Part shown: positions 9,140-51,113 of the stretch, piece after piece
Layout of the letters: each line of letters begins with the position of its first letter
Numbering within the stretch: position 1 is the stretch's first letter
Source of the DNA: Microcoleus sp.
GTDB taxonomy: Bacteria; Cyanobacteriota; Cyanobacteriia; Cyanobacteriales; Microcoleaceae
NCBI GenBank assembly: GCA_042408215.1
Contig: JAYFMW010000006.1
Span: 224,001 to 288,000 of the forward strand
Reading direction: 5' to 3'
DNA: 64,000 nt
Notes under the pieces: model-generated
The model's database searches: none
Seen by the model: only the letters and a program-made list of their open reading frames with translations
What the model was told of the DNA's origin: nothing
Program-made: the position numbers and the translations under genes

Positions 9140-10411
9140 TCAAAATGCATAGTTATATCCGTCCTTTTGGTGAATGGTTTTGCAATATTTGAAATTAATA
9201 CCCTGAACCAAGGTATCTGCGGAGATATTGAACGAACCGCTAGACCTAACGGCAACACGCCCGACATACGTGCCAATTTTCTTGCCACTGGTAACAGTTG
9301 CCCTCACGATGTCGCCAGTCTGAAACCCTTTGACAAACTTAAGTCGTGGCACATAGCGAGATGGGAAACCAAATTTATCCGTGCGACACATTTGACGAGT
9401 ACCGTATCCCGTCGTCTTAATTAACAACGGCTTGTTTGTCAGCACAGATAACGATTCAACTTGACCAACACAAGCTGCATCAAGCCAATGGGTTTTAGCT
9501 AGTTTCAATCGAGTCCGGTTGAACTTAGTTAATCCACCCGAACCAGTCGAAACAGGCAATCCCGTTTCTTTAAGGCGATTGAACAATGCCCATCTGGTAG
9601 AGTTGACGGCTGCTGCATCCTTGAGAGGACGTTTAGCTTGTGCAAGAATGCACTTCAGAACGTCTGGTTTCTTGGCTAAGAATTGCTCGACATCCTGAGT
9701 ACCTTTCTTGAGGTTGCACTTCTCACAAGCAAGGCAAAGGTTAGAAATGCGATCGCTGCCACCTTTGGCTTTGGGATGAATATGTTCAATTTGCAAAGGT
9801 ACATTTTCAACACTACAGTAAGCGCATTTCCTGTCCCATTTTTTCAATAGATATTCCCGAACTTCGTAGCCAGCTAATTCCCCTTGCTGATATTCAATGC
9901 CTGAATTTTCAGGATTTTCTAATTGTTGTAAATCAAACCTGACCAGTTCTTGAACAATTGAACCGATGGGGGCAAACCTAATTAATTTGTTCACCCAAGT
10001 TAGGGTAGTTTCTACACGATGTTGCAGACTTGGAGCCAGCCAGCCTTTGGTGCGGGTGCGATTTAAAAATCTTGCCTGACGATAACGAGTATGACGATTT
10101 CTCCTTGAGCGACGCAACTCGCTTCGGGACTCCAAAGACGCTTTAATTGTTTGACCTCGATGGCTTAATTCCGCACCAAAAATAACTTGCTCGTCTTGAA
10201 CCAAAGCAATCCCTGTAGTTTGAGAACCCGGATCTAATTTGAGAATAATTAATTCAGGAGTTGCTGTCACCGCCTTTTTGAGAATGATGGTAAATGGATA
10301 CCTTCTAAAAACCGCAGCTTTTCCTGCCGTTAACAACTTGTGAGCCATTGACGGCTTACAGGGTGTGAGCGGTTTTTTATTGGTATCAAGTACGAAAACG
10401 AGATTAGACAT
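9140..10411 (-). CDS. iscB: RNA-guided endonuclease IscB (PLMP/RRXRR + RuvC + HNH), apparently intact
   Basis: PLTP motif, RuvC-I KLDPGS, RRSRRNRHTRYRQARF bridge helix, QELVRFD, CAYC...EHIHPKAKGGSDRISNLCLACEKCN (HNH), HWLDAA. Confidence 0.95.
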   Translation of the reverse strand: MSNLVFVLDTNKKPLTPCKPSMAHKLLTAGKAAVFRRYPFTIILKKAVTATPELIILKLDPGSQTTGIALVQDEQVIFGAELSHRGQTIKASLESRSELRRSRRNRHTRYRQARFLNRTRTKGWLAPSLQHRVETTLTWVNKLIRFAPIGSIVQELVRFDLQQLENPENSGIEYQQGELAGYEVREYLLKKWDRKCAYCSVENVPLQIEHIHPKAKGGSDRISNLCLACEKCNLKKGTQDVEQFLAKKPDVLKCILAQAKRPLKDAAAVNSTRWALFNRLKETGLPVSTGSGGLTKFNRTRLKLAKTHWLDAACVGQVESLSVLTNKPLLIKTTGYGTRQMCRTDKFGFPSRYVPRLKFVKGFQTGDIVRATVTSGKKIGTYVGRVAVRSSGSFNISADTLVQGINFKYCKTIHQKDGYNYAF

Positions 10412-10419
10412 TGTTGTGT

Positions 10420-10691
10420 CTCTCCACTTGCGCGTAATGTTAGCTTCGTCAATGTTTAAGGTCGGTAACTATGTCAAAAGCACTGGTTTAACCCTTAAGC
10501 CTGTTTAACTTCTGAGTTCTAGAGCAGTGGACTAGCTTCGCATCCACTGGTAGGTCTTTAACTCTTGCCCTAAACGTAGTAAAAGTGGCTCCACTGAGCG
10601 AAGCCGAAGTGTTCTCTTACTTAGACTGGTCAACTAGGCGAATTTCTTGCCCCCGCTATATCGGTACTCCGATTAGCGGTGGGTGATTGAC
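10420..10691 (-). ncRNA. IscB omegaRNA (HEARO-like) scaffold
   Basis: Non-coding structured region upstream of iscB with the typical CTAGTTGACCAG...ACTACGTT...CCTACC..GATGCG..GCTAGT..GCTCTAG...GTTAAACAG...CCAGTG...AAACATTGACGAAGCTAACATTAC pattern. Boundaries approximate. Confidence 0.8.
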
Positions 10692-11945
10692 CCAGAAGAA
10701 CAGCTACTTTACAACCACTGGCTGGAGCTTGTACAGCTAGAGACGCCGGCCGAACTCATCGATCGCTTTCGGACTTTATTTATCCACTGTACAGGATATC
10801 CCGATCGCTCGATCGCCCAGGCCCTGGAAAAATTAGCAGCATCAAAACAGGCGGAACAAGAATTTAAATACATTTTGAACCGCTGCTGTCACATCCCGAT
10901 CAACCGCTGGCAAACATACCCCAGCAAGCAAGCAGCCATCCCCGAATTGATTGCTGTGTTTGAAGATGCGCCCTTCGTAGTATTTGGAAACAGTCGCTCG
11001 CGGGCGATCGGCTGCATACCCCAATTAGTACATCAATTTATCGCAAGCGAACAGTATCTCACACTCAAACGCTTCGCCCAAGTCATCACCCACAATTGGG
11101 AAGACAGCAGCAACAGCAAAACCCCTACTAGCAAGGCTCTCGGAACTTTAATTCCCCGCTACCCCTACCTTTACCAACACTGTCTCCTCAGCCAAGACAG
11201 CACCTACGAACAGCAGAAAATCATCAAAAAAATCCAAGCTCAAAAGCAGCAGCAATTTGAAATCGACCTCTCTCAATATGTAGCTCACCAAGTGAGAAAA
11301 ACCCAAATAGCCCGCCGAGCAACCTCTATCTCCTTCGCTCGTACTATACATAGTATAAAAAATCCCACCCTCTTGAGCGACCCCGAACTGTTCTGTGCCC
11401 TCAAGCAATTTGTCGGAAAAGTAGAAGGCGCCGATACTTACAGACAGCTCGCCTCGCGCTTCAGAGCGAACGCCAGCCAAACTCAGAACTACGGATCCTT
11501 TAAAGACGACTTGTACGAATACCTAATTTCTTCTGTCACCGACCACCGCTACGGCAAATGTCAATTTAACGATAAATTGTATAAGCAATTACAAAGTACC
11601 TTTCCCCACAGCGATGCTCAGAAGTTCAACGAATTTTTAACGATCAGAACTTGCAGCCAGTTGTTAAACTTTTTAGTAGTAGAGAGTCCTCAGCGACCCA
11701 ACCACTTTGTGTTCATTGACCTGATCTCAAACCTCGGCCCCACCCAAACCACAGGTCTGCTGCTGAAAATTTTACTAATTTGCCACCAAGTCAAACCCTA
11801 CCTAGAAAAGCGGCTGGCAATTTTGTTCGCCCACTACGAATTCTCGACCAGAGCAGGCGTAATGTGGTTAGTCAAAGCCCTCGAAAACCTGAATCTCGCT
11901 TTGAGTACCAACTTTGGCAAGGTAGACGTATCTTTCCTGCGGTAA
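10683..11945 (+). CDS. Conserved cyanobacterial hypothetical protein; native N-terminus displaced by the IscB element
   Basis: 420-aa ORF whose first three codons (GTG ATT GAC) come from the element end. Confidence 0.8.
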   Translation: MIDPEEQLLYNHWLELVQLETPAELIDRFRTLFIHCTGYPDRSIAQALEKLAASKQAEQEFKYILNRCCHIPINRWQTYPSKQAAIPELIAVFEDAPFVVFGNSRSRAIGCIPQLVHQFIASEQYLTLKRFAQVITHNWEDSSNSKTPTSKALGTLIPRYPYLYQHCLLSQDSTYEQQKIIKKIQAQKQQQFEIDLSQYVAHQVRKTQIARRATSISFARTIHSIKNPTLLSDPELFCALKQFVGKVEGADTYRQLASRFRANASQTQNYGSFKDDLYEYLISSVTDHRYGKCQFNDKLYKQLQSTFPHSDAQKFNEFLTIRTCSQLLNFLVVESPQRPNHFVFIDLISNLGPTQTTGLLLKILLICHQVKPYLEKRLAILFAHYEFSTRAGVMWLVKALENLNLALSTNFGKVDVSFLR

Positions 11946-11995
11946 ATAGCATTGGCACAACTAACTACTAAAACCCGTTGAAAAGAGGCTATTCT

Positions 11996-12175
11996 CGAAA
12001 AATTGGGTGGAAAACCCCGTCCTAAAAGGACGGCTTTGTGTTAAAATGGCTTCAAGTCGGGATAGGAAACTGCCACGACTCTAAATGGACCTAGAGAAAA
12101 CGTAAGACTATTTCGGTAGCAGATTTCTTAGAAGTGTCAAGAATCACCGCACCTGATAGTCGGTGAGTGTTTCAA
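11996..12175 (+). mobile_element. ORF-less IS200/IS605 mini-element (PATE-like): left-end hairpin + TnpB omegaRNA/right end
   Basis: cgaaaaattgggtggaaaaccccgtcctaaaaggacggcttt resembles the left end of the 15166..16504 element. Ends in AGAATCACCG...CGGTGAG..TCAA like its right end. Confidence 0.75.
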
Positions 12176-12319
12176 ATTTTAAAGTACCAAGTGTGAATCA
12201 GATTCGGTTGCAGGCTTTGTTCATTGCTACAGAATTGTCTAAAAACTTGCCCTTCTGTATCGGCAGGGAACTCTCCGAAACTGAAATCTTACACCATCTA
12301 AATTTTGGAGTTATTCCCC

Positions 12320-12667
12320 ATGTCGATATACGTCGGTAACTTATCCTATAAAGTTACCCAAGAAGACATCACCGCCGTCTTCGCTGAATACGGAACCGTT
12401 AAACGAGTACATCTACCTACAGACAGAGAAACGAGTCGCCCCCGTGGCTTCGGTTTTGTAGAAATGTCAACCGATGCAGAAGAAGATGCAGCCATTACGG
12501 CTCTCGACGGAGCAGAGTGGATGGGTCGTGACCTCAAGGTTAACAAAGCCAAGCCTCGCGAAGATGAAGGCGGCCGGGGCGGCGGCAGCCGGGGCCCCGG
12601 CGGCCCAGGAAAATTTCCTCGCGGAGAAAGAGGAGGAGAAAGAGGAGGAGAAAGAGGACGTTATTAA
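12320..12667 (+). CDS. rbp: RRM RNA-binding protein with Gly-rich tail (Rbp family)
   Basis: MSIYVGNLSY (RNP2), RGFGFVEM (RNP1), ALDGAEWMGRDLKVNKAKPR; TCTCCGAA box in the 5' UTR; GGAG RBS. Confidence 0.93.
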   Translation: MSIYVGNLSYKVTQEDITAVFAEYGTVKRVHLPTDRETSRPRGFGFVEMSTDAEEDAAITALDGAEWMGRDLKVNKAKPREDEGGRGGGSRGPGGPGKFPRGERGGERGGERGRY

Positions 12668-12776
12668 TTTCCTCGGAATTTCCTCTGACGCAGATTTGAG
12701 ATTTGAGATGGGAGATCAAGAGCACCTAGCTCCGAACCGCCTTCTCTTCAAATTTCCTGCTCTACGGTAAATACAC

Positions 12777-12810
12777 GCTAAAGCCAAGGGTCAAGCCCTT
12801 GGCTTTTAGC
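12777..12810. terminator. Hairpin downstream of rbp
   Basis: GCTAAAGCCAAGGG-tcaag-CCCTTGGCTTTTAGC. Confidence 0.6.
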
Positions 12811-15165: not shown

Positions 15166-16504
15166 TTGACATTCTCACCGGGCTGAAGCCACGGTGATTC
15201 TAAACATCACTGTTTAGGCTTCCTCTTTCGGCGATCCGACTTATTTAAAAGAGTTTCCTCATTCAAACTCTTGTTGATATCTCCAGAGGCGTTTGAGGTT
15301 TCCGTGTGCCCCACGGTACGCAATCCAAGTTCTAATATGTTGCGAGCGGCGTTCCAATCTCGGTCTAAAACGAATCCACAATGTGGACAAATATGTGTTC
15401 TTTGACTTAATGACTTTTTCGCCACTTTCCCACAACTAGAACAATTTTGACTTGTATAGTGTGGCGGTACTGCAACAGTTGCCACCCCAAACACTTTGCC
15501 AAAATATTCAATCCAATTTCTAAAAGCTGTCCAAGCCGCATCTGATATCGACTTGGATAGCTTTTTGTTTTTGACCATGTTACGCACCTGCAAGTCTTCA
15601 TAGGCTACCAAGTCGTTAGACTGGACTACGCACCTTGCTAATTTCACAGCAAAGTCTTTACGCCGCCTGCTTACCTTGAGGTGTTTTCTACTTAAACAAT
15701 TTCGAGCCTTAGCTCTATTTTTAGAACCTTTCTGCGTTCGAGAAAGTCTACGATTAAGCTTTTTTAACGATCTTTCGGACTTTCTTAGATGGCGCGGGTT
15801 CTCTACGGTGTTACCGTCAGAGTCTGTGTAGAAATGAGTTAGCCCTACATCCAAACCGATTGTTTTTCCGGTCTGCTCCCGCTTTTCGTTTCGTTCAGTG
15901 TCAATACAAAATTGCACGTAGTAGCCATCGGCTCGACGAACTACGCGCACTCGTTTAACTTGACTTAGCCGATAGAAATGTAGGTCACGAGTTCCCCATA
16001 ATTTAAAAATTCCGGCTTTAAATCCATCAGTGAAAGTTATATTTCGTCGGTCTTCAGAAAGCTTCCACCCACAGGTCTTGTATTCAACAGAACCGTGCGT
16101 TTCATGCTTTTTGAAGTGCGGAAAACCTTTCTTTCCTGGTTTTGCCTTCTTGCAGTTGTCAAAGAATCGTGCAATCGCTGACCAAGCTCTTTCAGCAGAA
16201 GCTTGCCTTGCCATTGAGTTGAGTTTACTGGCCCAAGGAAATTCTTTGGCAAGAACTACGCAATAAGCGCTTAAGTCGTAGCGACCTACCCCTGGGGTAT
16301 CCATCCAGTACCTGATGCAGCTATTACGAATGAAGCGAGCAGTACGAATGGCTTCGTCTAGCCGTTCGTACTGCTCGCTTTTCCCTTCTAGCTTGGCTTC
16401 AAATACTAACATTTACGTCGAGTGAGTGAATATAAAGACTATAACAGAGTTCTGGAGAAATTAAAGCCGTCCTATAAGGACGGGGCTTTAGACCCAGCTT
16501 TTTG
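15166..16504 (-). mobile_element. IS200/IS605-family tnpB-only element
   Basis: Left end TTAC|caaaaagctgggtctaaagccccgtccttataggacggcttt; right end agaatcaccgtggcttcagcccggtgagaatgTCAA. Confidence 0.85.
15207..16412 (-). CDS. tnpB: RNA-guided endonuclease TnpB, apparently intact
   Basis: IGLDVG, VAYEDL and DRDWNAA catalytic motifs; CSSC/CPHC zinc finger; 401 aa. Confidence 0.93.
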   Translation of the reverse strand: MLVFEAKLEGKSEQYERLDEAIRTARFIRNSCIRYWMDTPGVGRYDLSAYCVVLAKEFPWASKLNSMARQASAERAWSAIARFFDNCKKAKPGKKGFPHFKKHETHGSVEYKTCGWKLSEDRRNITFTDGFKAGIFKLWGTRDLHFYRLSQVKRVRVVRRADGYYVQFCIDTERNEKREQTGKTIGLDVGLTHFYTDSDGNTVENPRHLRKSERSLKKLNRRLSRTQKGSKNRAKARNCLSRKHLKVSRRRKDFAVKLARCVVQSNDLVAYEDLQVRNMVKNKKLSKSISDAAWTAFRNWIEYFGKVFGVATVAVPPHYTSQNCSSCGKVAKKSLSQRTHICPHCGFVLDRDWNAARNILELGLRTVGHTETSNASGDINKSLNEETLLNKSDRRKRKPKQ

Positions 16505-50905: not shown

Positions 50906-51113
50906 GATCGCTCTGTTAACGGATTATTGCTCAATGCAGACATTAATGGTGCAGCAAATATCATCATAAAATCTCAAGTAGCCACAGACTCAATAATCTC
51001 GCTGTGTGGGTAGGGGGTTGCTGACTAACCCTTTAAGAATCCAACTTTTTGTGGATTCATCCCAAAAAGTTTGTCCTCAAGAATCCCCGTGTAAGCGTAA
51101 CCGGGAGTGTCAA
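50906..51113 (+). mobile_element. tnpB 3' remnant with right end
   Basis: Reads NGLLLNADINGAANII; ends AAGAATCCCCG...CGGGAGTGTCAA. Confidence 0.75.

Follow-up and report, generated by a model that had tools for sequence, protein, structure and literature searches.

An intergenic region of this Microcoleus genome carries a 180-bp protein-free mini-element of the IS200/IS605 group (a PATE), with exact limits at 11996-12175 of the window (the whole stretch of 64,000 nucleotides analysed, G000:C6:224001-288000, where G000 is the genome itself and C-numbers are its contigs). We consider it probable that this PATE has kept its ends together with its guide-RNA scaffold, that a -10 box within it starts an RNA at the scaffold, and that the copy now acts as a promoter of the downstream gene rbp, with homing being weak at this site.

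In this model, a tnpB-type IS200/IS605 transposon would have lost its gene while retaining the two ends and the complete guide-RNA scaffold. The -10 box would be placed so that transcription begins at the first base of the scaffold, which would replace the 5' cut made by TnpB in its own mRNA. TnpA would have moved the element in trans, and the RNA could be loaded by an MKARY-clade TnpB encoded by another element. For the family as a whole, the empty donor site would be cut after excision, and repair from an element-bearing copy would restore the element. In the copy studied here, the left hairpin would end transcription arriving from upstream, and a single RNA made from the element's promoter would comprise the scaffold, the guide, the rbp leader and rbp.

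Setting and insertion history

The element is located between a 420-aa gene that matched no family and rbp, which starts with the ATG at 12320 (Table 1). Hairpins are found near both ends, terminal inverted repeats are absent, and the 4-base DNA guide in the left end has the role known from IS608. The left-end hairpin was scored as terminator-like for the upstream gene in a promoter/terminator scan. No ORF of at least 60 aa lies inside the element, and the residual tnpB frame amounts to only 10 open codons ahead of the scaffold; no Rfam family matched the element or its longer siblings (see below). From its conservation and its match to the consensus, we infer that the flank at 12176-12195 is a promoter region of rbp; in this genome the G of the native TG is replaced by T at 12178. 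A first-pass annotation, made from the letters alone, had proposed a 180-bp element with a left hairpin, a TG/TAAAAT box, a TCAA end and a guide at 12176-12195, and each of these parts was recovered where it had been placed. The same annotation had likened both ends to those of the nearby tnpB element (15166-16504), which holds for about the terminal 50 nt on the left and 35 nt on the right and fails for the interior. Elsewhere in the window, an IscB gene with a HEARO/omegaRNA (121 bits) is found at 9140-10691 (-), 1.3 kb upstream of the element, and a weak match to the right-end hairpin with TCAA at 51043-51113 (+) is probably another IS605 end.

Table 1. Features of the mini-element and its surroundings (window coordinates)
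Feature	Position	Strand	Remarks
Target tetranucleotide TTCT, left of the insertion	11992..11995	+	TTCT in 19/20 empty alleles, CTCT in 1/20
IS200/IS605 left end	11996..12037	+	AAAA DNA guide 12012-12015, hairpin 12017-12033, T-tract
Extended -10 box	12039..12047	+	TG 12039-12040, TAAAAT 12042-12047; start predicted at about 12054-12055
OmegaRNA-like scaffold including the right end	12054..12175	+	Last 122 nt of an 'MKARY'-clade tnpB element; right end with GAAT 12141-12144, hairpin 12144-12166, TCAA 12172-12175
Flank, would-be guide	12176..12195	+	Putative native rbp promoter region, TG-n-TAAA(A/G)T in 20/20 empty alleles
rbp, RRM RNA-binding protein with glycine-rich tail, 115 aa	12320..12667	+	NF058537 Rbp_regulator, 113.7 bits (cut-off 100)
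Neighbouring tnpB-only IS, target TTAC	15166..16504	-	Same end family, different scaffold

A search for the locus in 25 genomes of the genus, including the genome itself, yielded it in 24. The element was absent from 20 of the 24 loci, in which the base before 11996 is joined directly to the base after 12175; the empty sites that the first-pass annotation had suggested looking for thus exist, and they fix the limits of the element independently. The empty joint consists of the tetranucleotide given in Table 1 followed by R-TG-Y-TAAA-R-T, and there is no target duplication. The whole element was found in three alleles (L001-L003), and in a fourth (L004) an assembly gap comes directly after the left end. 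On the tree of the flanking genes, the four carriers group together on one branch (support 98/96; none of 500 label shuffles was as clustered), indicating a single old insertion. An exact match to a junction pattern was obtained for 3 of 79 genomes of the genus; 11 of the 14 matching genomes had one mismatch, and the four of these that were inspected were all unrelated. In two Microcoleus or Microcoleaceae records (L060 and L090) the identical site is occupied by the same element, with the scaffolds of L003 and L002, respectively, and these were not counted as further alleles. Damage to the left hairpin is seen in L002 and L003 (folds of -7.4, -6.0 and -4.1 kcal/mol), and in this genome the hairpin is intact. 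All three complete alleles retain the -10 box, and in all three the scaffold pairs at 32-33 of 35 positions, despite differences at 16 of 122 nt between L001 and L003. From a possible faster decay of the DNA upstream of the insertion in the carriers we draw nothing, because this DNA also varies when set against the empty alleles. In L015 (G011), an unrelated IS605 mini-element of about 280 bp has inserted independently in the same intergenic region, about 60 nt upstream.

Where the left end has the AAAA guide, the insertion is preceded by TTAT in 9 of 10 tnpB-bearing and 14 of 21 gene-less elements, a motif thus deduced from insertion sites and not from the nuclease; for the window copy and C6:457018 the preceding tetranucleotide is TTCT, which differs from TTAT by one base. 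The TTCT site, the damaged left hairpins of L002 and L003, and a scaffold only 82% identical to the nearest tnpB-linked one in the genome (C30:317035) together suggest that the homing role of this copy is probably weak. A search of the genome for guide targets beside TTAT, TTCT, TGAC-like and related motifs gave best sites with at least 5 mismatches in 20, and no guide match was evident by eye in the leaders of the rbp paralogues. As long as the element is inserted, it keeps the target motif and the guide match apart and thus does not target itself.

This copy could also be dead as a guide, an immobilised relic whose terminator and -10 box drive rbp and whose scaffold is just the rbp leader. 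Such a relic would account for a single old insertion retained in four genomes, for left hairpins that have worn in L002 and L003 while the -10 box stays, for the TTCT site and the loss of the native TG at 12178, for the lack, among the sites found elsewhere, of a motif-adjacent target with fewer than 5 mismatches in 20, and for a transcript that runs on through rbp (see below). However, the scaffold has kept its pairing in the three complete alleles in spite of its sequence divergence, and the left hairpin is intact in this genome. We regard a dead guide as unlikely, if far from negligible, and prefer a PATE that has kept a scaffold that may still act as a guide RNA.

Promoter box and RNA cover

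The 36 gene-less loci comprise 14 distinct linkers, and every one of the 14 has the hexamer TAnnnT with its end 7-9 nt ahead of the G in the scaffold's GTC; TG precedes the hexamer in nine of them. The linkers are related, and the counts are not independent. TAnnnT was found in this register in none of 37 distinct tnpB-linked upstream sequences, and in none of eight other sequences, among them longer mini-elements with a box further upstream. Five more distinct linkers, read by eye in hand-picked loci (30 and 15, six of the latter with the scaffold), also fit; a loose pattern was used only for picking loci, and its counts were near those of its reversed control. In one of these five the box lies 15 nt from the left end, which suggests that the box follows the scaffold. 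The usual spacing between a -10 box and the start of transcription would place the start at 12054-12055, at the first base of the scaffold.

Two origins of the box were considered for the window copy and rejected. Derivation from tnpB codons is possible for the C12 and C23 linkers, which resemble AKNIEK codons, and was rejected here because the linker is unlike that of the closest parent, L102. Copying of the -10 box of rbp, whose same 10 letters occur in 9 of 20 empty alleles, was rejected because an identical linker start occurs in L072, which lies at an unrelated site. The latter locus (L072:270-640, a Plectonema record) belongs to the same subfamily, has a broken left end and lies upstream of what appears by eye to be a tRNA gene; it is a second old copy that precedes promoter-like sequence. 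Likewise, four Microcoleus records (L043, L047, L054 and L098) share a single orthologous old mini-element whose 3' flank is conserved and which lies just upstream of a TG-TTAAAAT-like box.

RNA cover was examined in four metatranscriptome runs from four studies, of 21, as assembled contigs that are strandless and have no DNA control. A single contig spans 12065-12788 in X2 and 12063-12769 in X8, both running through rbp and both starting with letters that are presumably sequencing adapter. In both runs the stretch from about 11810 to 12053 is without cover, an upstream gap that we do not take as proof. The two contigs fit a transcript from about 12055 through rbp to a hairpin near 12781-12808, a hint of the read-through into rbp that the earlier annotation had considered possible. 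In X1, a contig at 12014-12865 (depth 290) is joined to one that starts at 11776 (depth 66), and in X4 the rbp contig begins at 12179; these two runs neither support nor exclude a start at about 12055. A contig end at 12043 in X1 was considered as a termination point and is read as an assembly branch, with a 30-letter overlap with the next contig. In the X1 and X8 strains, ends of the neighbouring tnpB IS family are inserted after TTAC in the upstream gene (window 11775/11776), a sign that the neighbouring IS moved recently.

It seems improbable to us that the element is an ordinary internal-deletion PATE, in which the -10 match would be due to chance in AT-rich DNA and the RNA cover to read-through or to DNA. 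The chance of TAnnnT in register is indeed about 0.11 per shuffled linker, the hexamer occurs just after the hairpin in 9 of 45 tnpB-bearing left ends, X1 has cover upstream, and the promoter scan of the element returned no -35/-10 pair (0 sites). Against this, 14 of 14 linkers, and the five of five read by eye, have the box in register; TG and the hexamer occur together in only 1 of the 45 tnpB-bearing left ends; the contigs of two studies begin 8-10 nt after the predicted start; and the 122 nt that were kept exceed what the transposase requires, as IS200/IS605 transposases need only short ends. Persistence in four genomes, the kept -10 box, the loss of the native TG at 12178 and the RNA contigs are signs that the element is of importance to rbp. 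Glycine-rich Rbps are often cold-induced according to the text consulted of PMC12232666, a statement that concerns such proteins and not this rbp.

Scaffold, siblings and candidate partners

With a covariance model built from 27 tnpB-linked ends only, the element scored 121.2 bits over all 122 positions. The proteins of the tnpB clade concerned begin with MKARY, and most of the best 29 loci from the order's other genomes lie directly after the DRDEN-AAKNI codons of such a gene or of its remnant. The closest tnpB-linked end, in another genome, is that of L102 (92% identical). The closest parent tnpB, represented by L102 and L103, occupies one position in both of the genomes concerned, and no left-end hairpin motif was found within 1.5 kb of it; this tnpB adjoins a gene whose counterpart in our genome is C17:765280-765654, and it is possibly immobile.

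Across 22 gene-less copies, 682 of 759 cells (90%) conform to a fold derived from 32 tnpB-linked ends, compared with 97% in the parents, and the window copy keeps 32 of the 35 consensus pairs and breaks three. When the fold was derived from the very alignment tested, that of 14 protein-free scaffolds, pairing holds in 96.2% of the cells and both sides have changed in 13 of 28 pairs, with none of 500 shuffles as high; this covariation may in part be inherited from the tnpB parents. Taken by itself, the sequence of the element folds no more stably than expected by chance (z -1.49, with 13 of 200 shuffles at least equalling it), so that the structure rests on the comparison with relatives. The processed scaffold of AmaTnpB has 106 nt and four stem-loops, and its 5' end is cut by TnpB, which does not trim the 3' flank, according to the parts consulted of PMC10278001.

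End profiles run on the genome found 169 left ends, 111 of them paired with a right end; 57 of the pairs surround tnpB (one element counted twice) and 51 are gene-less and shorter than 700 bp. This scaffold lies directly after a left end at 20 loci, and the window element has no close copy among the other 19. The earlier proposal of a stand-alone cassette made of a promoter and an omegaRNA scaffold is supported, and the sibling elements that it suggested searching for exist at these loci. A promoter-blind pattern applied to 185,579 species genomes gave 61 matches, 15 of which have the scaffold, all in cyanobacterial records; the other 46 lack it and were dropped as chance matches. Matches to some part of the element occur in 145 of 301 genomes of the order.

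Several relatives depart from this plan. In longer siblings (L025-L028) the -10 box and the scaffold are separated by about 110-170 nt of additional sequence, in which GTTGAAA, GGGCAAT, a short hairpin and GAAGCAA recur; longer-sibling loci are C30:248490-248779, C14:9600-9940, C6:457018-457356, C20:494746-495072 and C5:595255-595600. Further gene-less classes, measuring about 290-310 and 430-460 bp, have the same ends and different conserved interiors (for example, C30:147494-147922, C6:1066314-1066771, C17:207417-207875 and C5:534048-534355), and these interiors are possibly guide RNAs of other nuclease clades. The mini-elements at C12:75295-75360 and C6:580180-580235 abut the left ends of other IS605 elements.

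Proteins that could act in trans are encoded in the genome. The Y1 transposase gave 20 matches, and in two cases an unbroken tnpA frame is carried by an element with these ends. Together with the dispersed siblings, these frames would be in keeping with movement by TnpA in trans; the window copy itself is single and old. In the MKARY clade, six of nine examined genes have an unbroken frame, the D, E and D residues and the zinc finger; these are the intact copies found elsewhere in the genome. A nuclease-dead partner of the TldR type was not found among the nine members examined, since the eight that reach RuvC-III keep D, E and D; nor did the search for motif-adjacent sites give a second target for a TldR-type repressor. 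The intact TTAT-class member of the clade at C30:317034-318351 is the candidate partner that fits best. The first-pass annotation had the element borrowing TnpA and TnpB in trans, for which both kinds of protein are available, and had named the neighbouring TnpB (15207-16412), which belongs to another clade and is, from sequence comparison, very probably the wrong protein. That the RNA guides this neighbour is very improbable: the two elements have their end family and TCAA in common, and the neighbouring IS is intact, with near-identical copies in the genome and new-site insertions in other strains, but its 3' end scores only 40.6 bits, mainly from the terminal hairpin, the scaffold query found no match in it at E<=1, its TnpB is 34% identical to the MKARY-clade protein, and its target is TTAC.

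Relation to known systems and significance

IS elements can supply promoters to downstream genes when they insert into a promoter region and transcription runs from them into the host gene. The present case would differ in that the outward transcript is the guide-RNA gene itself. With the PATEs described by Dyall-Smith et al. (2011; PMC3119063), in the parts of that article consulted, the element has in common the absence of inverted repeats, of a target duplication and of a protein, the near-terminal hairpins, strain-specific insertion and an IS605-type origin; HqIRS71 in that work likewise keeps part of the tnpB 3' end. It differs from those PATEs in being cyanobacterial; a breakpoint fixed at the first stem of the scaffold and a -10 box in register are not described in the parts consulted.

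Meers et al. (bioRxiv 10.1101/2023.03.14.532601) state, in the text consulted, that PATEs often encode omegaRNAs that need the TnpB of other IS elements, and their excise-cut-restore model is the one adopted here; in that text we found neither a promoter nor RNA data for PATEs, nor transcription continuing into a host gene. The stand-alone omegaRNAs of OMEGA systems, as described in the portion consulted of PMC10691335, are likewise mobilised guides without effector or transposase that act in trans, and their role is called unknown; here, a partner clade, a start site and a target motif can be named from sequence. The IStron preprint, as far as consulted, shows a PATE and an expressed omegaRNA that is used in trans in E. 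coli. Thus, this kind of element and guide-bearing PATEs used in trans are already in print. In the literature searched, partly in excerpt, we found no report of these cyanobacterial elements, of a fixed promoter register in PATEs or of apparent read-through from one into a host gene; figures and supplements of the preprints may show PATE promoters.

Guide-bearing PATEs have so far been described mostly by inference. The family described here offers a precise design, with a promoter, a predicted start, a 122-nt scaffold, a partner clade, a target motif and some RNA support, and it locates the 5' end of a compact omegaRNA belonging to a TnpB clade that is widespread in cyanobacteria. The copy upstream of rbp is a candidate for the takeover of host-gene transcription by a guide-bearing PATE. 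A bolder and rather doubtful extension is that the mini-transposon has become both the promoter and the 5' leader of a host stress gene, rbp, and still folds as a scaffold, so that the same RNA may serve as rbp mRNA or, once bound by TnpB and trimmed, as a guide against the element-free rbp promoter. If so, rbp expression could be adjusted through the level of TnpB, and the lineage would be guarded against loss of the insertion and against a return to the ancestral allele.
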